DNA of 64,000 nt from Candidatus Omnitrophota bacterium (GTDB lineage: Bacteria > Omnitrophota > Omnitrophia > Omnitrophales > JACQLI01). Numbering within the stretch: position 1 is the first letter of the stretch; each line of letters opens with the position of its first letter. Below, in pieces: positions 15,588 through 48,387 of the stretch. The notes beneath the pieces were generated by a model, which was not told the DNA's origin, searched no databases, and was given only the letters and a program-made list of their open reading frames with translations. The position numbers and the translations under genes were made by a program. The stretch is from positions 9,084 to 73,083 of the forward strand of contig JACPCP010000009.1 of assembly GCA_016179745.1 (NCBI GenBank), given 5' to 3'.

Positions 15588-16174
15588 ATCAAAACAGAGT
15601 CATTCTGATTACGGGCGGGAGCCGGTCCGGAAAAAGCCGCCTCGCCCTCGAAAAAATGGCCGCTTACCCCCGCAAATTATTTTTGGCGACGGCGGTCGCC
15701 ACGGACGAAGAAATGAAAGAACGGATCGCCCAACACCAGAAAGACCGGGGCGCCGGCTTTGTGACGGTGGAGGAGCCGATTCATCTCGCCGACACCCTCC
15801 GCCGTGAGGCCGCTCGGGCGGATGCGATTTTGGTGGATTGCCTGACCTTTTGGCTGAACAATTTGTTTTATGCATCGGGAGCAGGAGTGCCCCGTCTTTC
15901 ATCGGCATCCTTGAGGGAAATTGAAGATTTCCTCACGGTTTTGGAAGAAAGGCCCGTCTCCTTGATTTTGGTCACCAATGAAATCAATATGGGGGTCGTT
16001 CCCTCGGAGGGGCTTACCCGCCGTTTCGTGGACGAACAGGGACGGCTCAATCAGGAGGTTGCCCGCCGTGCGGACGAAGTCATTTTAATGGTGGCAGGAA
16101 TCCCGCAGACGTTGAAGCGAAGCCGATTGGCCCCTTCCGTTCCCGCCATGACAGGAGGCCTTGTCTCACCTTGA
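15584..16174 (+). CDS. cobU: Adenosylcobinamide kinase / adenosylcobinamide-phosphate guanylyltransferase
   Basis: P-loop ILITGGSRSGKS, HQKDRG and LVDCLTFWLNN motifs. 4-nt overlap with cobC. Confidence 0.9.
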   Translation: MNQNRVILITGGSRSGKSRLALEKMAAYPRKLFLATAVATDEEMKERIAQHQKDRGAGFVTVEEPIHLADTLRREAARADAILVDCLTFWLNNLFYASGAGVPRLSSASLREIEDFLTVLEERPVSLILVTNEINMGVVPSEGLTRRFVDEQGRLNQEVARRADEVILMVAGIPQTLKRSRLAPSVPAMTGGLVSP

Positions 16175-32313: not shown

Positions 32314-32901
32314 ATGAAAATCGGGATTCTCGGGGGAAGTTTCGACCCCGTTCATGCGGGACATCTCTCCTTGGCCCGGGAATCCGAAGCGCAGTTTAAA
32401 CTCGATAAAATCCTTTTCATCCCGGCCCGAATCCCTCCGCACAAGCAGGAAGACCCCTCTCTGGCCCCTGCGTCCCACCGGGCCCGAATGGTGGAACTGG
32501 CCATCTCCGGGGCTCCCCGCTGGGAACTTTCCGATCTCGAGTTGCGCCGGCCCGGCGTTTCCTACACGGTGGAGACGCTCTTGGAACTCCGGAAAATTTA
32601 TCCGGAGCCTCACCAGATTTTTTTTATCGTTGGGGCAGATTCCCTGGCGGACCTCAAAAAATGGAAGGATCCCGAGGAAATTCTCAGGCTTTCCGAATGG
32701 ATCGTGGCGCCGAGGCCTGCCTTCCCGCTTCCCGGGAAACTTCCTCCCCGAATGCATTGGCTTAAGATGGCGCCCTTGTCTCTCTCGGCATCTGAACTTC
32801 GGGAGAAGATTCAGCGCGGGGATGATGTTTCTCAGTGGGTTCCTCAAAAAGTGACGGATTACATCCGGCGCACGGGGCTTTATCGAAGGGAGGGGGCATG
32901 A
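32314..32901 (+). CDS. nadD: Nicotinate-nucleotide adenylyltransferase
   Basis: GILGGSFDPVHAGHL and the ISASELREKI (ISSTxxR-like) motif. Confidence 0.9.
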   Translation: MKIGILGGSFDPVHAGHLSLARESEAQFKLDKILFIPARIPPHKQEDPSLAPASHRARMVELAISGAPRWELSDLELRRPGVSYTVETLLELRKIYPEPHQIFFIVGADSLADLKKWKDPEEILRLSEWIVAPRPAFPLPGKLPPRMHWLKMAPLSLSASELREKIQRGDDVSQWVPQKVTDYIRRTGLYRREGA

Positions 32902-34130
32902 CAGAGGGGGTCCCCTTCCTTCTTCTTGCGGCCCTCTTTCTCTTGGCCGCCTTTTTTGCGGGCTCAGAGACCGCACTCTTTTCCCTGACCCGGATTGAAC
33001 GGCGCCGGCTTGTGGAGCGTTACCCGCGCCTGGGGGGTCTTGTGAATGACCTTTTGGCGCACCCCCGGCGGGTCCTGGTGACCCTCCTCATTGGAAACAA
33101 CCTGACCCATATTTTGGCAGCGGTCCTTGTGACGCTCGTCGGCCTCCGCTGGGTGGGTCCGGGCAGGGTAAGTCTCGTGGTCGCAATTTTTACCGTGGCG
33201 CTGATTTTTTTCGGCGAGGTGCTTCCCAAGGTCGTTGCTGTCCGAAAAAATGAGTCCCTCGCCATTTTGGCGGCTCCCCTTTTGGAATTTTTGTCCGGCC
33301 TCCTGTTTCCCTTGAGACGGCTCGTGCAGTTCCTCAGTGATGGGGTCCTCAGTTTTCTCCTGCGGGACAAAAAGGAATCCTCGGATTTGATTTCGGCCCA
33401 GGAGCTCAAGCTCCTCGTTAAGATCGGGGAGGAAGAGGGAATCTTGGACCGTCAGGAACGCCGCATGATCCAAAAGCTTTTTGAGCTGGGGGAACGGCCG
33501 GTCCGTTCCATTATGACGCACCGGACGGACCTGGTGGCCCTCCGGCTCGGGGATCCCTGGGAGAAGCAGGAGGAAGTGATGAAGCGTTTCCATTATTCTC
33601 ACTTTCCGGTTTATCAGGATTCGCTGGACCAAATTACCGGGGTTGTCACGACCCAGGAAGTGATCCTGAGCGGCCAACGGGACCTGACCAAATTTTTAAA
33701 GCCTGCTTTTTATGTGCCCGCTTTGAAACGGATTGACGAACTCCTGCGGGATTTCCAAAAGACGGGGGCCCATTTTGCCGTGTGCGTGGATGAATTCGGG
33801 GGCACGGCCGGCGTGGTGACGCTCGAAGACATCCTGGAGGAAATTTTCGGAGAATTTTACGACGAATACGCCAAGCCCGAGCAGGCCATTCGGGAGGGGG
33901 AGGGCGGAGAGTACCTCGTCGACGGAAAAATTTCACTGGGAGAGTTCAACGAATTCTTTCACGGGAACCTTCGCTCCAAAGAGGCCGCAACCCTGAGCGG
34001 GTTTGTCCTCGAAAAGATGGGCCGGGTCCCGAAAAAAGGCGATCTCCTGGAAATCCCCCATTTCCGCCTCCGCATCCACGACATGGCCCGTCAGCGGATC
34101 CTCAAAATTGGGGTGAGGCCCCAGCGATGA
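32898..34130 (+). CDS. CNNM/CorC-family transporter (DUF21 + CBS pair + CorC_HlyC)
   Basis: ATG 32898 overlaps the nadD stop (ATGA). GSETALFSL of DUF21, a CBS region, and a C-terminal transporter-associated domain. Confidence 0.85.
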   Translation: MTEGVPFLLLAALFLLAAFFAGSETALFSLTRIERRRLVERYPRLGGLVNDLLAHPRRVLVTLLIGNNLTHILAAVLVTLVGLRWVGPGRVSLVVAIFTVALIFFGEVLPKVVAVRKNESLAILAAPLLEFLSGLLFPLRRLVQFLSDGVLSFLLRDKKESSDLISAQELKLLVKIGEEEGILDRQERRMIQKLFELGERPVRSIMTHRTDLVALRLGDPWEKQEEVMKRFHYSHFPVYQDSLDQITGVVTTQEVILSGQRDLTKFLKPAFYVPALKRIDELLRDFQKTGAHFAVCVDEFGGTAGVVTLEDILEEIFGEFYDEYAKPEQAIREGEGGEYLVDGKISLGEFNEFFHGNLRSKEAATLSGFVLEKMGRVPKKGDLLEIPHFRLRIHDMARQRILKIGVRPQR

Positions 34131-35068
34131 CCCTCCTCCTCGGGCTGGCCGTCTGCCTTTTTTTCTCAGCCTTCTTCTCGGCCTCGGAGATGGCCTTTCT
34201 TTCGACCGACCGGGTCAAGCTCCGGGAGCTTTCCGAGCAGGGCATTGTCCGGGCCCGGTGGCTCCTGGATCTTTTTACGAATTCCCGGGAGTTTCTCACG
34301 GCCATGCTGATCGGTAACAACCTGGTCAATGTGTCAGCCGCCGTGCTCTTGACCGTTTTCCTTGAGACCCGGTTCGGGATCGAGAATGAGTGGGTGGCGA
34401 CGGCCCTTCTGGCCCCCGTCCTTATTGTTTTCGCCGAGACCGTGCCGAAGGGTTACGGCCGCTTCCGGGGCCGGGGTTTTTTGCTGGACCACACCAGCCT
34501 TGTTCTTTTCTTCTGGAAACTTTTTGCCTGGCCGGCCCGGCTGCTTCTCGGGGCCTCCGGGGTTTTTCTGGGGACCGGGCAGGGGAGCGGCCAGAGAAAT
34601 ATTCTTGTCAATGAAGACGAGTTCCGGTTTCTCATTGAAGAGAGTGTGCGCTCGGGTGTCCTGGAGGAACACGAAAAGAAATTTGTGGAGCGGATCCTGG
34701 ATTTTGAGCGGATTCCGGTCGAGCGGGTGCTGGTCCCTGTGGCGACCGTTCCCCGGGTGGAGCTTTCTGAGAAGGTGAAGGATGCCAAGGGGCGGGCCCG
34801 GCAGACGGGTTCCAAGGTGATTTTAGTTTATGAGGAAATTCCCAATATCGTCATCGGAATGATCTACACCTTTGATTTGCTTTTTGAAGAAGACGGCGAA
34901 AAGCCGCTTCGTTCTTTCCTCCGTTCGCCCATCTTTCTTCCCAAAGAGACCTCTCTCGAAAAGGCCTTCCTGACGCTGCAGGAAAGGCGGCAGTCCTTTG
35001 CCCTCGTGACAGACGCCCAGCTTGAAGTGGTCGGGCTCGTCAATATCGAAAACCTGCTCGCCCTTTAG
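34127..35068 (+). CDS. CNNM-family protein (DUF21 + CBS pair, no CorC_HlyC tail)
   Basis: ASEMAFLS and MLIGNNLVNV of DUF21, followed by a CBS-like region. Coupled to the upstream gene. Confidence 0.8.
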   Translation: MTLLLGLAVCLFFSAFFSASEMAFLSTDRVKLRELSEQGIVRARWLLDLFTNSREFLTAMLIGNNLVNVSAAVLLTVFLETRFGIENEWVATALLAPVLIVFAETVPKGYGRFRGRGFLLDHTSLVLFFWKLFAWPARLLLGASGVFLGTGQGSGQRNILVNEDEFRFLIEESVRSGVLEEHEKKFVERILDFERIPVERVLVPVATVPRVELSEKVKDAKGRARQTGSKVILVYEEIPNIVIGMIYTFDLLFEEDGEKPLRSFLRSPIFLPKETSLEKAFLTLQERRQSFALVTDAQLEVVGLVNIENLLAL

Positions 35069-35103: not shown

Positions 35104-35132
35104 TTGACACCCGGCCCAGCCTTCCCTATACT
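35104..35132 (+). promoter_or_regulatory. Strong sigma70-like promoter of the iron-uptake operon
   Basis: TTGACA (35104-35109), a 17-nt spacer and TATACT (35127-35132). The -10 element ends only 8 nt before ATG 35141. Confidence 0.6.
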
Positions 35133-35140
35133 TCCTGCAA

Positions 35141-35590
35141 ATGAGATTCATTCTCAAAATCACAGTTCTGGGATTGGGGCTGGGGCTTGGAGCCGCTTCC
35201 CCGCAGAAGGGAGGGCCCTCGGCGTGGGCCTCGGAATCCAAAGCGCCTGCGGCCGTCGAGACCCACGAAGAGAAACCGCTCCACGGGGGCCATTTCGGGG
35301 ACGCCGGGAACCTTTATCATTATGAAGTCGTGCTTGAGCCGAACCGTGCGGTTCGGCTTTATCTTTACGATGAAACGGCGCAGCCGATGAAGGTGACCGG
35401 GATTCCGGCCCGCTGGACCCTCTCTCCCGACGATCCAAATCCCGTGCGGGGGGAATTTCAGGCGGGGGAACAGGGGGAATTTTACCGGGCCGAGGTCCCC
35501 CGGCCGGCGGGCCCCGTCCTTCATCTGAAGGTAGAAGCCCGGAGAAAAGGGGAATGGGTCCCCATGGAATTTTTTATCCCGCTTCAATGA
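35141..35590 (+). CDS. Secreted hypothetical protein, possible metal-binding accessory of FTR1
   Basis: Signal peptide MRFILKITVLGLGLGLGAAS. The mature part has an HGGHFGD...YHYEV His-rich motif. The stop overlaps the FTR1 start (ATGA). Confidence 0.55.
   Translation: MRFILKITVLGLGLGLGAASPQKGGPSAWASESKAPAAVETHEEKPLHGGHFGDAGNLYHYEVVLEPNRAVRLYLYDETAQPMKVTGIPARWTLSPDDPNPVRGEFQAGEQGEFYRAEVPRPAGPVLHLKVEARRKGEWVPMEFFIPLQ
35142..35156. promoter_or_regulatory. Fur-box-like 7-1-7 palindrome (site 1)
   Basis: TGAGATTCATTCTCA, compared with the Fur 7-1-7 consensus TGATAATnATTATCA. It overlaps the start codon and the predicted transcription start. Confidence 0.55.
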
Positions 35591-36417
35591 ATCCTTTAAT
35601 CGTATCCACCTTCGTCATTGTTTTTCGTGAGACCCTCGAAGCGGCTTTAATTGTCGGAATCATTCTTGCCTTTCTGGCCCGGACCCACGCCCAGCCCTTT
35701 ATGAGGCAGGTCCTCTCGGGAACGGTCTCGGCCCTCTTGGCGAGCGGGGTCATTGCCTTTCTCTTTGAGCGGACGGTGGGAAGTTTTGAGGGCCGGGCCG
35801 CTCAAATTTTCGAAGGCCTCGTGGCGCTCGTGGCGTCCGGTGTTCTCACCTACATGATTTTTTGGATGCACCGTCAAGCCTCCCGAATCCGTACCCATAT
35901 GGAAGCGGAACTCGTGGCCGTCGTGAACCGCAAAGATCTTTGGGCCCTGTGGGGGATGGCCTTTTTCGCCGTTTTAAGGGAAGGCGCTGAGACGATTCTC
36001 TTTTTGAAGGCCTCTGCCCTCCAGGCCGGCGGGGCCGTTTCAACCCTTGGAGGGGTTTCGGGTTTTTTCCTGGCGGCCCTTCTGGTGTTTGTCGTTTTTT
36101 GGCTCGGGAGGAAAATTCCCTTGAAACCCTTTTTCCACGGCACCGGCTTTCTTCTGACGCTGATGGCCGCCGGGCTCTTGGGCTACGGCGTCCACGAACT
36201 GGGAGAGGCGGGGTGGCTCCCGGTCTTGATCGAACACGCCTGGGACGTGAACGGTGTCCTGAATGAAAAAGAGGGGATGGGTTCTTTCTTGAAAGCCATT
36301 TTTGGCTACAACGGCAACCCCTCGCTCCTCGAGGCCGTTTCTTACTACACCTACCTTCTGGGCATCCTCACCCTTCTCGAGTGCCGCAAGGCCTCGGAAG
36401 CCCAAGCGCCCGCTTAA
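35587..36417 (+). CDS. FTR1/EfeU-family high-affinity iron permease
   Basis: Two REXXE motifs (FRETLEAA and LREGAETI) in a 7-TM protein. Confidence 0.85.
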   Translation: MNPLIVSTFVIVFRETLEAALIVGIILAFLARTHAQPFMRQVLSGTVSALLASGVIAFLFERTVGSFEGRAAQIFEGLVALVASGVLTYMIFWMHRQASRIRTHMEAELVAVVNRKDLWALWGMAFFAVLREGAETILFLKASALQAGGAVSTLGGVSGFFLAALLVFVVFWLGRKIPLKPFFHGTGFLLTLMAAGLLGYGVHELGEAGWLPVLIEHAWDVNGVLNEKEGMGSFLKAIFGYNGNPSLLEAVSYYTYLLGILTLLECRKASEAQAPA

Positions 36418-36463
36418 AGAAAATCATGAAGAACTCTGAACGGGAAAATTTTGGGTTGAAGGA

Positions 36464-36478
36464 TGAGAATGATTCTCA
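36464..36478. promoter_or_regulatory. Fur box (site 2), perfect 7-1-7 palindrome
   Basis: TGAGAATGATTCTCA. The extended GAGAATGATTCTCATTATC matches 16 of 19 positions of the classical GATAATGATAATCATTATC. It overlaps a possible promoter, TTGAAG-17-TTATCA. Confidence 0.75.
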
Positions 36479-36603
36479 TTATCAACCCCGGGGCCGGCCG
36501 GCCTTCCTCCTCCCCCCTGAGCGGCCGGCCCGCTGCTTTTATCCTCAGGTATTTGGAAACTCAAAATTTCAAATCTCAACAACCCAAAAAAGGAGAATTT
36601 AAG

Positions 36604-37950
36604 GTGAAGAATAAATTTCAAAAGATGGCCGCTTTGACACTCAGTTTATTTTTAGCCCTGCCGGTTTCACCGGGCCGTGCCGCCGGTGAGGAAGATTTGG
36701 TGAAGCGGGTTTCGGAGCTTGAGAAAAAGGTCAAGCGGGTGGAGGAGCTTGAGAACGAAGTGACGGCGCTGAAGAAGCAGCTTGAAATCACTCAGACGGG
36801 AGAGAGTGCGGACCGGGGCGCCGATTACATTCCGAAGAAGGCGGGCGAATTCACCGATAAGAAACTTTCGCCCAGCTTCGGCGGGGTCTACACAAAGCCC
36901 TTCCTTAAGCGCTACGGCCGGAACACCTACGTGGGCGGCTACATGGATATGGAGTATATCGATGACCAGGATTCCAATGCCCGCTTCCGCCAGCACCGCC
37001 TCATTCCCTTTATTTACTCCGACATCTCGGACCGGGTGAAGTTCGCCACCGAAATTGAATTTGAGGACGGGGGGCCGCAGAACAACCGGGCGGACGGCGA
37101 AGTGAAAATCGAGTTTGCGACGATCGACTACCTCCTCAATGAAAAGGTCAACTTCCGGACCGGAATCCTCCTGTCACCGCTCGGCAAGCTGAACCTGGTC
37201 CACGACTCTCCGATTCAGGATCTGGTGAACCGTCCGCTCGTCGATACTAATATTATTCCGACGACCCTCTCGGAGGCAGGCGCCGGTTTTTACGGCACGT
37301 TTTACCCCAGCGAGCTTTCCAAGCTCGATTATGAGATTTATCTTGTCAATGGCTTTGAGGGGATCGCCTCCAACGGAACAGCCCGCTTTACCCGCACGAG
37401 CGGACTTCGGGGAGGCCGGGGCTCTGAGAAAACGGACGTTAACGATGATCCGGCGATGGTGGGCCGGATTGCCTTCAGCCCGTTCCTCGGCCTCGAGACC
37501 GGCTTCTCAACGCACGTCGGCGATTACGACGCCACGGGAAAAAATCTGCTGGCGATTTATGCCTGGGACACGACGCTTCAAAAGGGCCCCTTCGAGCTTT
37601 TGTTCGAGGCCGCTTACGCCGATATTCATCGAAATGCCTTTGCCAAATCCAGGAACGTCCCCGGAAATCTCTGGGGCTACTACGTGCAGGGAAACTATCA
37701 CTTCCTGCCGGGTTTTCTCAAAAAGGGGCTCCCGGCCTTTTTTACCGACGAATCCAAATTCACGCTTTCGGCCCGCTGGGACCAGATGGATTTGGACGGG
37801 TCTGAGTCAAGCCGGTTCACCGCCGGCATCAACTTCCGTCCCACGGAGGACACGGTCTTTAAACTCGCCCATGAGTGGAATATTGAAAGCGGTGATTTGG
37901 CCGATGCCGGAAACAATGAACTTCAACTCTCTGCCGCCACTTACTTTTAA
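36604..37950 (+). CDS. Outer-membrane beta-barrel porin with an N-terminal coiled coil
   Basis: AAGGAGA RBS before GTG 36604. Signal peptide KNKFQKMAALTLSLFLALPVSPGRAAG. Heptad segment LVKRVSELEKKVKRVEELENEVTALKKQLE. Alternating beta-strand pattern. C-terminal ...LSAATYF (terminal Phe). Confidence 0.7.
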   Translation: MKNKFQKMAALTLSLFLALPVSPGRAAGEEDLVKRVSELEKKVKRVEELENEVTALKKQLEITQTGESADRGADYIPKKAGEFTDKKLSPSFGGVYTKPFLKRYGRNTYVGGYMDMEYIDDQDSNARFRQHRLIPFIYSDISDRVKFATEIEFEDGGPQNNRADGEVKIEFATIDYLLNEKVNFRTGILLSPLGKLNLVHDSPIQDLVNRPLVDTNIIPTTLSEAGAGFYGTFYPSELSKLDYEIYLVNGFEGIASNGTARFTRTSGLRGGRGSEKTDVNDDPAMVGRIAFSPFLGLETGFSTHVGDYDATGKNLLAIYAWDTTLQKGPFELLFEAAYADIHRNAFAKSRNVPGNLWGYYVQGNYHFLPGFLKKGLPAFFTDESKFTLSARWDQMDLDGSESSRFTAGINFRPTEDTVFKLAHEWNIESGDLADAGNNELQLSAATYF

Positions 37951-38401
37951 AAGGTGTTTGGTTTTGCTGGCGTTTGTCCTGGCGTCCAGTGGCTGTGCCT
38001 CGTTCCGGGACGGAGCGGTTGCCTCGCCCGATTATCGTGCAAAGTTCGCCGCCCCGCCGGAAAAGGTGTGGGAAGTTTTAGTGGACGTCCTGAAAGACCT
38101 TCCGATCAAGGAAGCGGACGCCGTCCGGCGACGGGTTGAAACGGAATGGATGGAGGGGTGGAGCGAACGGACCCTCGGGGCCTTCGGCGGCGGTCTGATG
38201 GGGAATCAATGGAAGAAGCGAGTCGGGCTCGTGGCCCGGCTTTTACCGGCGCCGGGCGGAGGGACCGAGCTTCGACTCGTCAGCCGGGTCCAGGAAAAAA
38301 CGCCGGGCGGGACACGGGCCTTCCGCTGGCAGCCCGTGCCCTCGGACGGAAAGATGGAAAGGGAAATCATTCAAAGGGTTCATTCGAGGCTTGAGACATG
38401 A
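37916..38401 (+). CDS. Lipoprotein, function unknown
   Basis: Lipobox VLASSGC. Only the 3' third of track ORF 37331..38401 is real; the 5' part overlaps the porin out of frame. Confidence 0.6.
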   Translation: MNFNSLPPLTFKRCLVLLAFVLASSGCASFRDGAVASPDYRAKFAAPPEKVWEVLVDVLKDLPIKEADAVRRRVETEWMEGWSERTLGAFGGGLMGNQWKKRVGLVARLLPAPGGGTELRLVSRVQEKTPGGTRAFRWQPVPSDGKMEREIIQRVHSRLET

Positions 38402-38919
38402 AGGATTTTTCCAAATCGGCCTACAACTTTTCCACGATCTCCGCCGGTCAGAAACTCACCTATTCGAGTTTTCTCGTTTTGATGCTGGCGGGCTGGCTCA
38501 CAATGATCGCATTTTACTTCAAGGAAACCGGTTTCAGCGTCCCGAGCCTCGTTGACTATTATCGGGGCAGCGAAGAGAGAATGTTGTTTCCCAAGACCTT
38601 CTACGCTCTCTGGGAAGTCACGCATTATCATCTTTTCACGATCCCCGTCGTCTTTCTCATCCTCATCCACCTTTTTATGCTGGCCCGGGCGGATTTCGTC
38701 TGGAAGCTGGGGCTCCTCGCAGCGAGCTTCACGGGCATGGTGTTGGACATTGGGACGCCGTGGCTCATTGTTTATTCCCATCCGGTCTGGGCGTGGGGAA
38801 AATTCCTCGGGCGCCTTCTCCTGAACGGGAGCTTTTTGATCTTGATCGGGTGGCCACTTTGGGAGATGTGGGCTTGGCGCCGCCCGAAGCCTTCGAGACA
38901 CCCGAGACCCGCCGCCTGA
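38398..38919 (+). CDS. Integral membrane protein, function unknown
   Basis: Four hydrophobic helices. Conserved-looking YYRGSEE...EVTHYHLF motif. ATGA overlap with the upstream gene. Confidence 0.6.
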   Translation: MKDFSKSAYNFSTISAGQKLTYSSFLVLMLAGWLTMIAFYFKETGFSVPSLVDYYRGSEERMLFPKTFYALWEVTHYHLFTIPVVFLILIHLFMLARADFVWKLGLLAASFTGMVLDIGTPWLIVYSHPVWAWGKFLGRLLLNGSFLILIGWPLWEMWAWRRPKPSRHPRPAA

Positions 38920-38991
38920 GACGGCGATTTCGCTCTTGGAGAAAGGGCTTGAACTCTTCTATAATAGCTCCCACACGACACCTCCAAACCC

Positions 38992-39456
38992 ATGGCGAAA
39001 CACTCGGCCGGCGAATTCCAAGAGCGGTTTCACGAGAAAAACCTGAAGCTCACGCACCCCCGCCAGGCGATCACCCAGAAGATCCTGTCGACCCGGGCGG
39101 GTGAGCATTTCTCGGCCGATGAGCTTTGGGAGCGGCTCCGGCGGAAGGGCGAGCGGATTTCCAAGGCCACGGTTTACCGCACGCTCCACCTCCTGGTCGA
39201 AGAAAAGGCGGTCGAAGAGCATGATTTCGGAAAAGGGCAGAAATATTACGAACGGATGGTCGAGCGGCCCCACCACGACCACCTCATTTGCATCCACTGC
39301 GGACGCATCCTTGAATTCGAAAATTCAAACATCGAACGCCTCCAGGGCGAAGTGGCCCGGCGGGAAGGTTTTATCATCCGCTACCACAGCCACAAACTTT
39401 TCGGGACCTGTTCCAGCTGCCGCCGGAAGGCCCCGCCGCCCGCCCGCCTTCGCTGA
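38992..39456 (+). CDS. fur: Fur-family transcriptional regulator
   Basis: Winged helix ...ISKATVYRTLHLL.... Metal sites HHDHLIC.HCG and C-terminal CSSC. Confidence 0.9.
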   Translation: MAKHSAGEFQERFHEKNLKLTHPRQAITQKILSTRAGEHFSADELWERLRRKGERISKATVYRTLHLLVEEKAVEEHDFGKGQKYYERMVERPHHDHLICIHCGRILEFENSNIERLQGEVARREGFIIRYHSHKLFGTCSSCRRKAPPPARLR

Positions 39457-39469
39457 TTTTTTCAAGAAA

Positions 39470-40087
39470 CTGCTGACAACCTCTCTTTGGTCCCCGCTCC
39501 TGATTTTTCTTCTATGGACGGCTGCCTTCTCAAACGTCTTGCCGGCCGCCGAGGCCTCCGAGGCTGAGAGAGAGCCCGAAGGGAACGCCCGAAATGAAAT
39601 TTATCTGACGCCGGAGGAGGCCCTGGAAAAGGCGTTTGCCGGAGCGGATCGAATCGAGAAAGAGGTGATCCGTCTCAGTCCTGAAGCGGAGGCAAGGGTG
39701 GCCCGGGCCGTCGGCCACCCGCTCTACGAACGGGAGTTTGTCCTTTACCGGGGAATCAAGGCCGGAAACCTTTTGGGGACTGCGATGATGGGGGAGGAGC
39801 TGGGGAAATTCCGCCCCATCACTTCGATGACGGTTGTCGGGCCGGACGGGAAGGTCCAGGACGTGAAGGTCCTGGTTTACCGGGAAAGCCACGGCAGCGA
39901 TGTCCGGAGAAAACGGTTTCTTTATCAATATTTCGGGAAAGGCCGTGACGACCCGATTCAGATCAACCAGGACATCACTTCGATTTCAGGCGCCACGATC
40001 TCGGTCCGGTCGATGAATGCCCAGGTCCGGAAGGCGCTGAACGTGATCTACGAGGCTTCTTTCAAAAAGTCCGGGGAGAAAGATTAA
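39470..40087 (+). CDS. Exported FMN-binding-domain protein (start unresolved)
   Basis: FMN_bind domain with the flavinylation-type motif ITSISGATISVRS. The N-terminal hydrophobic segment KKLLTTSLWSPLLIFLLWTAAF lies upstream of the first in-frame TTG. The 5' part of track ORF 39101 overlaps fur. Confidence 0.7.
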   Translation: MLTTSLWSPLLIFLLWTAAFSNVLPAAEASEAEREPEGNARNEIYLTPEEALEKAFAGADRIEKEVIRLSPEAEARVARAVGHPLYEREFVLYRGIKAGNLLGTAMMGEELGKFRPITSMTVVGPDGKVQDVKVLVYRESHGSDVRRKRFLYQYFGKGRDDPIQINQDITSISGATISVRSMNAQVRKALNVIYEASFKKSGEKD

Positions 40088-40090
40088 AAA

Positions 40091-41077
40091 ATGCGCCCGC
40101 TTTTCCGTTTCCTGATTCTCGGCCTGGCCCTTTGGGCCGGCTGTTCCCCCCGGCCCGCCTCACGCCGTCAAGAAGTCGTGATGGGGGTTTTCAATGAGGT
40201 GGTCGTCCTCGGTAAAGAGAAGCGGGACCGGGAACGGATTTTGGACCGGGCCTTTAAGCTCCTTCGTGAAATCGACGCCCGGATGAGCCACTACCAGGAG
40301 ACGAGTGAAATTTCCAGAGTCAATCGCCTGGGTTATGAGTCGCCCCAGGAGGTTTCCCCCGAGACCTTCGAGGTGATCGAGGCCTCCGTCAAATTTTACG
40401 AAAAGTCGGGCGGGGTCTTTGACATCACGGTTCTGCCGCTTGTGAAACTTTGGGGATTTTTTGACGGAAAGCCTCACCTGCCTCGGCCGGAGGAAATCCA
40501 GAACCTGCTGCCTCGGATTGGTGCCCATCAGCTGATTCTCGAGCCCGAAACAAGGAAAGTCGGTTTTCGGGTCCCCGGGATGGAGATTGATTTGGGAGGC
40601 ATTGCCAAGGGTTACGCCTGCGACCGGGTGGTCGGGCTTTTGAAATCGGAGGGGATCGAAAATGCGCTGGTGAATATCGGGGGGACGATCTTCGGCCTGG
40701 GAAGGTCCGGGGACGGAAAGCCCTGGCGGGTGGGCCTCCAGCATCCGAGGGACCCCACCCGGACCCTTCGGGTGATTACACTTTCCAACGAAGCCGTGTC
40801 CACGAGCGGGGATTACGAGCAATTTTTTGTCGTGGACGGCCGCCGCTATTCGCATATTCTCAACCCCCGCACCGGTTTCCCGGCGGACCGTTCCATTGCG
40901 GCGTCGGTCATGGCGCCCTCGGCGCTTCTCACGGATCTGCTCTCAACCAGCCTCTTCGTCCTTGGCCCCGAAAAGGCCTCTCTTCTGGCCGATCAGTTTC
41001 CGGAGGCCCGCTGGACCCTTACCTATTTTTCGGACGACGGCCGTTTTAAGACGCTCTCCTCAGAATCCGTCGCTTGA
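40091..41077 (+). CDS. apbE: FAD:protein FMN transferase (ApbE), lipoprotein
   Basis: Lipobox LALWAGC. ApbE motifs GVFDITV, DLGGIAKGYA, VSTSGDYE and SHILNPRTG. Confidence 0.9.
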   Translation: MRPLFRFLILGLALWAGCSPRPASRRQEVVMGVFNEVVVLGKEKRDRERILDRAFKLLREIDARMSHYQETSEISRVNRLGYESPQEVSPETFEVIEASVKFYEKSGGVFDITVLPLVKLWGFFDGKPHLPRPEEIQNLLPRIGAHQLILEPETRKVGFRVPGMEIDLGGIAKGYACDRVVGLLKSEGIENALVNIGGTIFGLGRSGDGKPWRVGLQHPRDPTRTLRVITLSNEAVSTSGDYEQFFVVDGRRYSHILNPRTGFPADRSIAASVMAPSALLTDLLSTSLFVLGPEKASLLADQFPEARWTLTYFSDDGRFKTLSSESVA

Positions 41078-41149: not shown

Positions 41150-42253
41150 ATGATGAGGATGATTGCCATTGCGAATCAAAAAGGCGGGTGTGGTAAGACC
41201 ACGACGGCGATTAACTTGGGCGCCTGCCTGGCTCGGCTGAACCGGAAAGTGCTTTTGGTGGACCTGGACCCCCAGGCCCACACGACCGTGGGTCTGGGGA
41301 TTTTTCCGGAAAAACTTGAGCGGACCCTTTGCGACCTGCTCGCCCCGGGGGAGGAGAAAAAGACCTCCTGGGAAGAGGTCACGCTCCGTCTCAATCCCCA
41401 CCTCTATCTTCTGCCGGGCGACCTCCGGCTCCAGCGCTTCGAAGAGATCTTTCCCGGCCACCCTCAAAGGGAGAAACAGCTCAAATACCTTCTGCTTTTT
41501 TCGATTCCCCGCACGGAATCGTTTGATTTTGTCCTGATCGACTGCCCTCCCAACCTGGGTCTCCTGACCCTGAATGCCCTGGAAGTGGCGGAGGAGGTCT
41601 TGATTCCGATTGAGCCCTCCTTTTTTTCGCTTCACGGCCTCGCCAAAATGTCCGAGACCCTCCAGCGGGTCACGGAAAAAAGAAGCCGCCCTTTTCAAAC
41701 CCATGCCCTCCTCACGCTCTTTGAGCGGCGCAGCACCTTTTCCCAGGAGGTCTACGAAGAGGTGCGGAAGCATTTCGGGGAGCGATTGTTTCACACGGTC
41801 ATTCACGACAACGTGGCCTTACGGGAAGCCGCTGGGGCCGGCCTCAGCATTGTGGATTTTGACCCCGAGTCGATCGGCTACCGGGATTACATGGGCCTCG
41901 CCACCGAAATCCTGGAGCGGGGATGGAAATGGGAAACGCCCGAGGAAACTCCGGTTTCAGAAAAAGATTCGTGGAAACGGCCGGCCGGAACCCGAAAAGT
42001 TTGCGGAGGCGTCCTCTTCCAATACTACGCCCCGGAGGCGAAGGAGGTCCTCGTGGCCGGTGATTTCAATCAGTGGCTGGCGGAGCCCTTGTTACGGCGA
42101 AACGGAAACGGCCTCTGGCAGAAAGTGGTCCTGATTCTGGAGGGGAGTCACCGCTACAAGTTTTTGGTGGATGGGGAATGGAAGGCGGACCCCGGCGCCC
42201 GGGAGGAGAAGGAGAACACCTTCGGGACCCGGGATTCCTACCTGGTCCTTTAA
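41150..42253 (+). CDS. ParA/Soj-type ATPase fused to a C-terminal CBM48/AMPK-beta glycogen-binding-like domain
   Basis: Deviant Walker A IANQKGGCGKTTTAINL, LVDLDPQ and VLIDCPP. The C-terminal segment VLFQYYAPEAKEVLVAGDFNQW...GLWQKVVLILEGSHRYKFLVDGEWKADP carries the FNxW / YKFxVDGxW hallmarks. Confidence 0.85.
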   Translation: MMRMIAIANQKGGCGKTTTAINLGACLARLNRKVLLVDLDPQAHTTVGLGIFPEKLERTLCDLLAPGEEKKTSWEEVTLRLNPHLYLLPGDLRLQRFEEIFPGHPQREKQLKYLLLFSIPRTESFDFVLIDCPPNLGLLTLNALEVAEEVLIPIEPSFFSLHGLAKMSETLQRVTEKRSRPFQTHALLTLFERRSTFSQEVYEEVRKHFGERLFHTVIHDNVALREAAGAGLSIVDFDPESIGYRDYMGLATEILERGWKWETPEETPVSEKDSWKRPAGTRKVCGGVLFQYYAPEAKEVLVAGDFNQWLAEPLLRRNGNGLWQKVVLILEGSHRYKFLVDGEWKADPGAREEKENTFGTRDSYLVL

Positions 42254-47189: not shown

Positions 47190-47486
47190 ATGGGGACCCG
47201 TTTGAAGACCGAAGATTCGGTGGATGTGCTGCACTTTCCCGGCACGCTGGACGCTTTTCAGATGCTCCGCCTCCGGCCGCGCTTGACACGGCTTTTGAAC
47301 CGGCATCCGAGACTGCTTGTTTTGGACCTCGCCGAGACCCGCGAGGTGAAACTGGCGGGACTGGGAATGCTCGTGGACCGGCTCCGGCGGTCCAGCAATG
47401 GAACCGGGTTTCGAATTGAGAATGCCTCGCCCCGGGTTTTCCAGACCCTTGCCCGCGCCGGGGTGAATGGTTTCCTCGCGTCCTAA
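47190..47486 (+). CDS. STAS-domain protein (anti-sigma-antagonist-like, non-phosphorylatable variant)
   Basis: The pattern VLHFPGTLD...LVLDLAETREVKLAGLGMLV...VFQTLARAGV matches the STAS fold. The usual DSSG serine position reads KLAG. Confidence 0.65.
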   Translation: MGTRLKTEDSVDVLHFPGTLDAFQMLRLRPRLTRLLNRHPRLLVLDLAETREVKLAGLGMLVDRLRRSSNGTGFRIENASPRVFQTLARAGVNGFLAS

Positions 47487-48387
47487 AAAAAAATCGCACG
47501 AACCGGTCCTTCGGGAGGAAGTGTTAAAGTTCCTCGATCCGAAACCGGGGGACGTGGTGGTCGACGCCACGGTGGGGAGCGCAGGGCACGCGGCAGCAAT
47601 TCTGAAGTGTCTGGGAAGGCGGGGCCGGCTGGTGGGGATCGATCAGGATCCGGAGGCGGTCCGCCGGGCCCAACGGAAGCTGAAGGGATTCAAGGGGGCC
47701 GAGGTGGTCCAAAGCAATTTTAATCACATCGATGAAATTTTAGAGCGCCTCAATCTTGACGCCGTGGATGCCGTATTACTAGACGTCGGGCTCTCGACGG
47801 AGCAGCTCGAAGCCGCCGGGCGCGGATTCAGCTTTTTGAAAGAGGGGCCGCTTGACATGAGAATGAATCCCGAAGGCCCTTTGAGGGCCCGGGACCTGGT
47901 GAATGATCTTTCTCAGGGCGAGCTGGAAAAACTTTTGAGGGCCCACGGAGAGGGGCGCTGGGCCGGGCGAATTGCCCGGGCGATTTTGAGAAGGCGGGCC
48001 CGGCAGCCGATCGAGACCACCCGTGAGCTTCGTGAGGTGATTGAAGAAGCAGTGCCCCGCCGGTTCCATTTTGGCCGCCTCCACCCGGCCACCCGGACGT
48101 TTCAGGCTTTGAGGATCCGGGTGAATGATGAGCTGGGGGCGCTCGAGGAGACGCTTCCGAAGGCGCTTCGGGTTTTACGGCCGGGCGGGAGAATCGCGGT
48201 GATCAGTTTTCATTCGTTGGAAGACCGGATCGTGAAGCAGGCCTTTCGAGAAGGGGCCCGGCAGGGAATTCTGGAGATTTTGACGAAGAAGCCGGTCGAG
48301 GCAGGGCCGGGGGAAGTGGAACGGAACCCCCGTTCGCGGAGCGCAAAGCTCCGGGCAGCGAGAAAAGCGGCTCTGCCCGGAGAATAG
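47467..48387 (+). CDS. rsmH: 16S rRNA (cytosine1402-N4)-methyltransferase
   Basis: HEPVLREEV, VDATVGSAGH, LLDVGLS, GPLDMRM and SFHSLEDRIVK motifs. Confidence 0.95.
   Translation: MVSSRPKKKSHEPVLREEVLKFLDPKPGDVVVDATVGSAGHAAAILKCLGRRGRLVGIDQDPEAVRRAQRKLKGFKGAEVVQSNFNHIDEILERLNLDAVDAVLLDVGLSTEQLEAAGRGFSFLKEGPLDMRMNPEGPLRARDLVNDLSQGELEKLLRAHGEGRWAGRIARAILRRRARQPIETTRELREVIEEAVPRRFHFGRLHPATRTFQALRIRVNDELGALEETLPKALRVLRPGGRIAVISFHSLEDRIVKQAFREGARQGILEILTKKPVEAGPGEVERNPRSRSAKLRAARKAALPGE

Follow-up and report, generated by a model that had tools for sequence, protein, structure and literature searches.

A probable iron-acquisition locus of an Omnitrophota bacterium with an FTR1 permease and a conserved flavin module containing the membrane protein Aq_1264_TM

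Flavinylated systems have repeatedly been tied to iron reduction and assimilation, according to Méheust et al. (2021, eLife; PMC8238504). The same paper describes 260 gene clusters in which P19 and FTR1 are encoded with an FMN_bind gene and for which a redox role in iron uptake was proposed, systems with PepSY-like or DUF2271 proteins linked to Fur and iron, and many flavinylation clusters without a membrane electron-transfer component (PMC8238504). Huang et al. (PMC11334425) add the heme b proteins DUF4405 and FezC, which are associated with flavinylation and iron, report that small histidine-bearing membrane proteins encoded in apbE clusters, including the homodimeric FezC, proved to be heme b cytochromes, and state that about half of the ApbE-encoding genomes are without a characterised system. 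The present analysis concerns a locus with FTR1, fur, FMN_bind, and apbE genes at positions 35,104 to 41,077 of a 64,000-nucleotide stretch of DNA from Candidatus Omnitrophota bacterium (assembly GCA_016179745.1, contig JACPCP010000009.1), the whole of which is referred to below as the window.

The region is most likely an iron-acquisition locus that consists of two modules and is predicted to be repressed by Fur. Module A (35141-36417), which encodes a secreted His-motif protein and an FTR1 permease, would be the inner-membrane iron-import step. Module B (36604-41077) is a conserved unit of five genes, encoding a porin, a lipoprotein, a protein with four transmembrane (TM) helices (the 4-TM protein), an FMN_bind protein, and ApbE, with fur inserted among them. 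Conservation extends more widely for the flavin module than for Module A, and the transporter next to the flavin module is interchangeable. FMN_bind and ApbE were tied most tightly to the 4-TM protein and not to FTR1, with the porin and the BamC-like lipoprotein as usual companions. Module B did not turn up in the consulted sections and term searches of PMC8238504, PMC11334425, and a 2025 ApbE review, and the main text of the first two papers does not mention a porin. The cluster is probably a previously undescribed variant of flavin-based iron reduction and uptake. It is a variant of a known theme and not a new kind of system: that a flavinylated protein might assist FTR1-type uptake, put forward as an inference in a preliminary description of this DNA, had already been published for the P19-FTR1-FMN_bind clusters (PMC8238504).

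Gene content and comparison with described systems

The following features were assigned to the locus; numbers preceded by L denote loci used for comparison.

35104-35132, plus strand: promoter P1 (TTGACA, 17-nt spacer, TATACT), agreeing with the consensus at 11/12 positions; both hexamers conserved in L013 and L027
35141-35590, plus strand: secreted His-motif protein of 149 amino acids (aa; HGGHFGD…YHYEV), candidate periplasmic metal-binding partner of FTR1
35142-35156, no strand assigned: Fur box 1, TGAGATTCATTCTCA, overlapping the predicted transcription start and the start codon at 35141
35587-36417, plus strand: FTR1/EfeU-type iron permease of 276 aa (PF03239, E = 1.9e-46), with RETLE and REGAE
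36464-36478, no strand assigned: Fur box 2, TGAGAATGATTCTCA, a perfect 7-1-7 palindrome between TTGAAG (36456-36461) and TATCAA (36480-36485)
36491-36539, plus strand: GC-rich stem in the porin leader (36491-36500 paired with 36522-36531), with a U-run after it, conserved in three lineages
36604-37950, plus strand: outer-membrane porin, distantly related to the OprO/P family (weak Porin_O_P match), with a coiled coil at its N terminus
37916-38401, plus strand: lipoprotein of 161 aa, distantly DUF3576/NlpB (BamC)-like, with a lipobox-like ASSGC
38398-38919, plus strand: 4-TM inner-membrane protein, Pfam PF27139 (Aq_1264_TM), with YYRG…THxHLF; predicted local distance difference test (pLDDT) score of the fold model 95.7
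38937-38965, plus strand: fur promoter-like element (TGGAGA, 17-nt spacer, TATAAT), without a Fur box, conserved in L013 and L027
38992-39456, plus strand: Fur-family repressor (PF01475, E = 1.3e-33), with an HHDH motif and two CxxC pairs
39470-40087, plus strand: RnfG/NqrC-like FMN_bind protein with an SGAT flavinylation motif (PF04205, E = 3.2e-9), start codon uncertain
40091-41077, plus strand: ApbE, FAD:protein FMN transferase (PF02424, E = 2.5e-86), a predicted lipoprotein with an N-terminal lipobox-like LWAGC

The genes of the cluster correspond by exact sequence match to NCBI accessions MBI2166911 to MBI2166918. NCBI names in the locus were limited to an FMN-binding protein, ApbE (FAD:protein FMN transferase), and a "transcriptional repressor", with the His-motif and 4-TM proteins both entered as hypothetical. 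Pfam and NCBIfam domain searches bore out the FTR1, Fur, FMN_bind (SGAT), and ApbE assignments of the preliminary description, and the two REXXE motifs that it had reported in FTR1 were confirmed. Its overall view, of an iron-uptake locus with credible Fur operators, was likewise supported.

As in the P19-FTR1-FMN_bind clusters, FTR1 was encoded together with ApbE and an FMN_bind protein that is predicted to be extracytosolic; those clusters come mostly from Gram-positive bacteria and are without a porin (PMC8238504). Unlike them, the window cluster encoded no P19 (PF10634) and had a sequence-unrelated His-motif beta-sandwich protein in its place, while its flavoprotein was tied to the 4-TM protein and the porin rather than to FTR1. 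With the PepSY-like/DUF2271 and DUF4405/FezC systems (PMC8238504; PMC11334425), the locus shared a small histidine-bearing membrane protein encoded with apbE and its substrate in an iron-related, Fur-linked context. The 4-TM protein of the window showed no detectable kinship in sequence or fold with the membrane proteins of these systems, and it has four TM helices with three conserved histidines on a single helix, whereas the known cytochromes carry four histidines distributed over a 6-TM core. The cluster further resembled EfeUOB, FetMP, cFtr1-P19, and FtrABCD in its FTR1 with two REXXE motifs, its co-translated periplasmic beta-sandwich partner, and its Fur control, which is predicted here. 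However, no match to EfeO (cupredoxin/M75), EfeB (DyP peroxidase), P19, a cupredoxin, or a polyferredoxin was found in the cluster, and its redox partner would be a reductase-type flavoprotein instead of a ferroxidase.

Conservation of the flavin module and properties of its proteins

Gene neighbourhoods were compared for every retrievable locus carrying a member of the 4-TM family, and these loci came from several phyla. The 4-TM gene directly adjoined FMN_bind and/or ApbE in 14/14 loci. The arrangements were as follows.

Window, L013, and L027: the same gene arrangement
L006: fur, porin, lipoprotein, FMN_bind, 4-TM, ApbE
L008: FTR1 fragment, hemP, porin, lipoprotein, 4-TM, FMN_bind::ApbE fusion
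L010: porin, lipoprotein, 4-TM, FMN_bind, ApbE, fur, hemP, FTR1
L015 (Latescibacterota) and L016 (metagenome-assembled genome of an uncultured bacterium): porin, FMN_bind, 4-TM, with FeoB divergent upstream in L015
L014 (Gemmatimonadetes): FMN_bind, 4-TM at the contig end
L021: ApbE, 4-TM, ZIP
L022-L026: short contigs, with FMN_bind and/or ApbE adjacent

All five genes of Module B occurred together in L006, L008, L010, L013, and L027, and the porin was co-located with the FMN_bind and 4-TM genes in the same five loci as well as in L015 and L016. The association extended to 4-TM proteins only 33-35% identical to that of the window (L014, L015, and L016). Genes adjoining the modules included Fur, FTR1, hemP, FeoB, and ZIP; the neighbouring inner-membrane transporter was FTR1 in five loci, FeoB in one (L015), and ZIP in one (L021), and there was none in one (L006). 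Because the His-motif and FTR1 genes occurred without flavin genes (L011) and the flavin module without FTR1 (L006, L015, and L021), the locus was divided into two modules. This neighbourhood comparison, which the preliminary description had proposed, thus upheld one part of its picture, in that a unit of porin, lipoprotein, 4-TM protein, FMN_bind, and ApbE recurs near iron transporters, and not the other: with FTR1 replaced by FeoB or ZIP or missing, an FTR1-FMN_bind pairing was not a conserved partnership. The 4-TM protein, which had been listed as an uncharacterised extra component, instead emerged as the invariant partner of FMN_bind and ApbE, to the point of in-frame 4-TM::ApbE fusions in four representative protein clusters. 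The two fusions that were inspected (P0065 and P0091) contained an additional hydrophobic segment, lipobox-like in sequence, by which ApbE would be placed on the external side of the membrane.

In two distant loci, L015 (8559-9476) and L016 (2037-2930), the 4-TM gene was followed by a gene for a secreted protein of about 300 aa, of which the two copies were 70% identical and gave no Pfam hit; this protein may be a lineage-specific accessory of the module. In L019 (Candidatus Scalindua, 8001-16002), a porin homologue (49% identical) preceded a lipoprotein homologue and an FMN_bind::ApbE fusion by 4.4 kb. Genes for response regulators stood between the porin and lipoprotein homologues, and a 4-TM gene was not detected in L019. 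This anammox locus seems to hold the module in a looser form.

A PF27139 label was precomputed on all 11/11 close homologues of the 4-TM protein, and a full profile search returned 767 representative clusters at 50% identity. Among 94 diverse members, G57, H76, and H78 were invariant and H91 was 86% conserved; Y55, W122, and M157 were also invariant in the subset at 33-55% identity. A collection scan with the alignment of close relatives yielded only three loci from genomes and three short ones from metagenomes. The conserved histidines lie on one TM helix, with 13 residues from H78 to H91 and 15 from H76 to H91, spacings that recall di-heme transmembrane helices. The protein, of about 170 aa, contains no Cys. 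Its AlphaFold2 model consisted of four long helices, with a short helix and a hairpin bearing YYRG in the loop between TM1 and TM2. Because of the charge distribution, both termini are predicted to be cytoplasmic, which would bring H76 and H78 closer to the periplasmic end of TM2, with H91 and M157 nearer to the cytoplasm. Kinship with known cytochromes or transporters was not supported: Foldseek gave no significant match to a solved structure in the PDB (best E 2), and Pfam hits across the 94 members were noise, without a recurring related family. Literature searches for aq_1264 and PF27139 found no mention and no functional annotation. One family member (P0150, 417 aa) had its Aq_1264_TM domain fused to DtxR_C (the C-terminal domain of iron-dependent repressors) and FeoA domains; although this may be a gene-calling artefact, it points to a possible iron-sensing or FeoB-coupling variant of the family.

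The flavinylation motif in FMN_bind domains is [S/T]GA[S/T] (PMC8238504), and the locus contained genes for both ApbE and a putative FMN_bind substrate with such a motif (SGAT at residue 173), the latter with weak similarity to RnfG. The locus holds a flavinylation motif together with an ApbE that is predicted to be extracytoplasmic. The signal sequence of the FMN_bind protein was conserved in-frame, and the L006 and L010 orthologues had ATG starts and clear signal peptides. The NCBI version of the protein (MBI2166917.1) starts at a TTG at 39539, so that it has no signal peptide.

The porin has a heptad-rich N-terminal segment. It scored 16.5 bits against Porin_O_P (PF07396), for which the cutoff is 20.9, while its orthologue in L015 (Latescibacterota) reached 30.9 bits and several homologues carry the Porin_O_P label; no PDB relative was found by sequence. 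Its predicted beta-barrel matches OprO and OprP porins in size, and the N-terminal periplasmic coiled coil is presumably comparable to that of DcaP-like trimeric porins. At least 1510 homologues made up the porin family, and Planctomycetes/anammox bacteria and Omnitrophota were the source of many of them. The window lipoprotein had no domain match of its own; its Scalindua homologue matched DUF3576 (3.9e-8) and, weakly, NlpB/BamC. By tblastn, the lipoprotein was syntenic in L006, L008, L010, L013, and L019, and L027 had a gene of matching size and position. The lipoprotein start at 37916 overlaps the 3' end of the porin gene by 35 nt, and the 4-TM gene overlaps the lipoprotein stop by 4 nt. 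These end-to-end overlaps suggest translational coupling of the three genes.

In Module A, the most likely FTR1 start is at 35587, where an ATGA overlap with the upstream stop codon gives the 276-aa protein that is also called in L013 and L027; another possible ATG start is at 35554. The overlap would couple translation of the His-motif protein and FTR1, as judged from the gene layout. FTR1 scored 215.6 bits against the NCBIfam EfeU model, under the equivalog cutoff of 255. The His-motif protein had only four homologue clusters and tracked FTR1, being always next to or near it. Neither Pfam nor NCBIfam gave a match to it, and PDB searches with the single sequence or the profile found none either. 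Its AlphaFold2 model showed a disordered N-terminal stretch of about 55 residues, carrying the conserved E40, H42, and HGG(H/Y)FGD, and then a beta-sandwich (residues 57-149, pLDDT 80-90). Fold matches were marginal and stood among generic immunoglobulin (Ig)-like domains; some were to metal-binding proteins of the periplasm, namely Helicobacter pylori CrdA (1e-3) and the FTR1 partners FetP (0.03) and FtrA (0.035), with TM-scores of about 0.4 for FetP and FtrA. The identification of the protein as a P19 (PF10634) was rejected, as sequence matches in Pfam, NCBIfam, and PDB were absent and the fold likeness was weak and Ig-like. Functionally it would fill the P19/FetP slot; by sequence it is not a member of that family. 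In L011 (3594-9490), the gene order was fur, hemP, His-motif protein, TonB-dependent receptor, ExbB, ExbD, TonB, and FTR1, without flavin genes. This arrangement indicated that FTR1 can pair with an energised outer-membrane receptor instead of a porin/flavin module.

Fur boxes, promoters, and surrounding sequence

The encoded regulator had true Fur proteins as its best PDB relatives (Magnetospirillum 4RAZ, 1.9e-27; Campylobacter 4ETS), with PerR and Zur lower. Fur box 1, described previously as one mismatch short of perfect dyad symmetry, and the palindromic Fur box 2 were both found exactly as claimed. The 16/19 agreement reported for the second site was reproduced with the 19-mer at 36465-36483, which matched the classical Fur box GATAATGATAATCATTATC at 16/19 positions on the plus strand and at 17/19 on the minus strand; Fur box 1 matched at 14/19. 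These two were the only sites in the 64 kb with at least 14/19, and block shuffles gave 0.68 sites at that level and none at 16/19 or above. A degenerate palindrome with at most two mismatches gave 5 strand-matches in the window, compared with 0.45 expected, and 0/100 shuffles reached 5. A third match to this pattern (47858-47872, two mismatches) was treated as chance. It lies inside a long open reading frame (47467-48387) near mraZ, which from its position and N-terminal sequence is taken to encode an rsmH-type methyltransferase.

By consensus scan only, Fur box 1 begins 9 nt past the -10 hexamer of P1, and Fur box 2 fills the spacer of the promoter-like pair TTGAAG/TATCAA. Both boxes and the P1 hexamers were kept in L013 and L027, whose proteins are about 78-91% identical to those of the window and in which some flanking sequence diverges; the L027 version of Fur box 1, TGAGAATCATTCTCA, is a perfect palindrome. 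In L006 (proteins about 50% identical), variant 7-1-7 palindromes were present upstream of the porin gene (TTGAGAATGAGTCTCAA) and of fur (TTGAGACTCAGTATCAA), while L010 and L011 had palindromes of the type TTAAGAC-N3-GTCTTAA upstream of fur. Only 8 nt separate the -10 hexamer of P1 from the ATG at 35141, and a Shine-Dalgarno sequence is absent. The mRNA of the His-motif gene is therefore probably leaderless, and its start codon lies within Fur box 1. This arrangement (35127-35143) was kept in L013 and L027, and Module A is probably a leaderless operon.

Between Fur box 2 and the porin start codon, the conserved leader stem comprises 10-11 bp with a C/U-rich loop of about 20 nt. It was identical in three lineages, without covariation, and its fold z-score of -0.28 was not significant. 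The hairpin could be the terminator of the FTR1 operon or a leader attenuator. At the fur promoter, TATAAT was invariant in L013 and L027 and no Fur-box-like palindrome was present; autoregulation of fur is therefore not evident.

An Rfam scan of the whole window returned tRNAs only. Directly upstream of P1 lie tandem CNNM(DUF21)-CBS (CorC/HlyC-type) paralogues (32835-35068), which have the same position in L001 and L027; nothing ties this pair to the Fur-controlled unit. Directly downstream of ApbE, a ParA/MinD-type ATPase with a C-terminal CBM48/AMPK glycogen-binding domain (41150-42253), an unusual domain pairing, is encoded at the same position as in L013 (96% identical).

Proposed iron reduction and alternative explanations

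In the proposed mechanism, Fur would repress expression, and the porin would let Fe(III) species into the periplasm. ApbE would attach flavin mononucleotide (FMN) covalently to the FMN_bind protein, at the Thr of its SGAT motif. The histidines of the 4-TM protein (H76/H78 on the periplasmic side and H91 on the cytoplasmic side), together with M157, would hold a redox cofactor, and the protein would supply the flavoprotein with electrons drawn from the membrane or cytoplasm. Reduced flavin would then convert Fe(III) to Fe(II), to be imported by the co-encoded ferrous transporter, which would be FTR1 with its His-motif partner here and FeoB or ZIP elsewhere. That the locus specifies such a Fur-repressed, envelope-spanning assimilatory ferric reductase feeding a ferrous transporter is regarded as evenly balanced between true and false. 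More tentatively, as a possibility held with some doubt, Aq_1264_TM may be a new class of flavinylation-associated transmembrane electron carrier, probably dimeric and with its cofactor on H76/H78/H91, that forms a diderm assimilatory ferric reductase with the porin, the BamC-like lipoprotein, and the RnfG-like flavoprotein. Of all steps, the role of the 4-TM protein is the most conditional.

The eight proteins of the locus contained no CxxCH motif, and a porin-cytochrome conduit of the MtrAB/Pcc type was rejected on this ground. Because of this count of zero and the lack of Cys in the 4-TM protein, FMN and the 4-TM histidines were the only redox-cofactor candidates in the locus. The earlier portrayal of the module as self-contained was not borne out, as no electron input was identified in the locus unless the 4-TM protein provides one. 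Its portrayal as Fur-regulated stood in part: Fur boxes precede the FTR1 unit and the porin unit, while FMN_bind and ApbE are located behind the Fur-box-free fur promoter.

Several observations weigh against the reductase proposal. FTR1 permeases classically pair with ferroxidases and not with reductases (Fet3-Ftr1, EfeUOB, and FtrABCD). The 4-TM protein showed no likeness in sequence or fold to PepSY-like, MsrQ-like, DUF4405, or CybB-type cytochromes, and its three conserved histidines are on one helix, so that a bis-His heme would need a dimer or a Met or Tyr partner. FezC sets a precedent for heme sites formed through homodimerisation (PMC11334425). The porin family is large, and many of its members, for example in Brocadia, are unlinked to the module. 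The conserved terminator-like hairpin between Fur box 2 and the porin start complicates the operon model. The fur promoter ahead of FMN_bind and ApbE is conserved and carries no Fur box; a box therefore gives no direct indication of iron control for these two genes, and their expression may be independent of iron. Finally, no ATG, GTG, or TTG lies upstream of the signal sequence of the window FMN_bind protein (39455-39541), for which CTG codons at 39470 or 39473 were the only candidate starts.

Two other roles can be considered for the 4-TM protein. It might export or deliver flavin (flavin adenine dinucleotide, FAD) to the periplasmic ApbE, with the electrons of the flavoprotein coming from components encoded elsewhere. 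Such a role would suit the fusion of the 4-TM protein with ApbE, the maturation enzyme, and not with FMN_bind, as well as the many flavinylation clusters without a membrane electron-transfer component (PMC8238504). It would also be in line with Listeria, in which extracytosolic flavinylation and electron transfer need dedicated flavin-trafficking transporter subunits (PMC9973259). However, the fusion may just mirror gene adjacency, as FMN_bind::ApbE fusions occur too, and four TM helices in a protein of this size argue against an exporter. The invariant TM histidines argue in the same direction, since a spacing of 13-15 residues is characteristic of cofactor or metal ligands and not of known flavin transporters. 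In favour of an exporter, the Listeria transporter genes lie within the flavinylation locus itself. A flavin exporter is considered unlikely. The 4-TM protein might instead be a channel or permease for Fe2+ (divalent metal), with the HxH, Glu, and Met residues lining its path and the flavoprotein reducing Fe(III) via an unlinked donor. The conserved E73, H76, H78, H91, and M157 look like metal ligands, the family includes a member with fused DtxR_C and FeoA domains, and L006 has the full module and Fur with no FTR1, FeoB, or ZIP within 7-10 kb. Against this, a separate inner-membrane metal transporter was encoded beside the module in 7/8 loci with informative flanks, and the 4-TM protein had no similarity to any known transporter family. 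A metal channel is likewise held to be improbable.

The two modules might also be independent neighbours that share Fur control or location, with the His-motif protein and FTR1 importing iron alone and the flavin module serving another periplasmic redox function, such as extracellular electron transfer or repair. The separate occurrence of the His-motif/FTR1 pair in L011 and of the flavin module without FTR1 in L006, L015, and L021 would be consistent with independence, as would the FMN_bind/ApbE promoter without a Fur box. Conversely, nearly all loci with sufficient flanking sequence, from different phyla, had Fur or an iron or metal transporter as a neighbour, Fur box 2 lies immediately ahead of the porin operon, and none of the clusters contained respiratory enzymes, cytochromes c, or Fe-S proteins. 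Independence of the modules is considered rather unlikely.

If the proposed role of Aq_1264_TM in a ferric reductase is correct, the locus would add one more to the ten flavinylated systems catalogued in 2021 and the DUF4405/FezC class of 2024, and the reductase would be modular as to the ferrous transporter that it feeds (FTR1, FeoB, or ZIP). The parts are all small and can be expressed in Escherichia coli, so that the hypothesis is directly testable, and PF27139 gains a testable role. Research on flavinylated extracytosolic electron transfer is still young, and the locus points to a compact and, with 767 representative clusters of the 4-TM protein, widely distributed module. Such a module would explain iron reduction and import without cytochromes c or siderophore machinery in some diderms, among them uncultured Omnitrophota, Latescibacterota, and Gemmatimonadetes.

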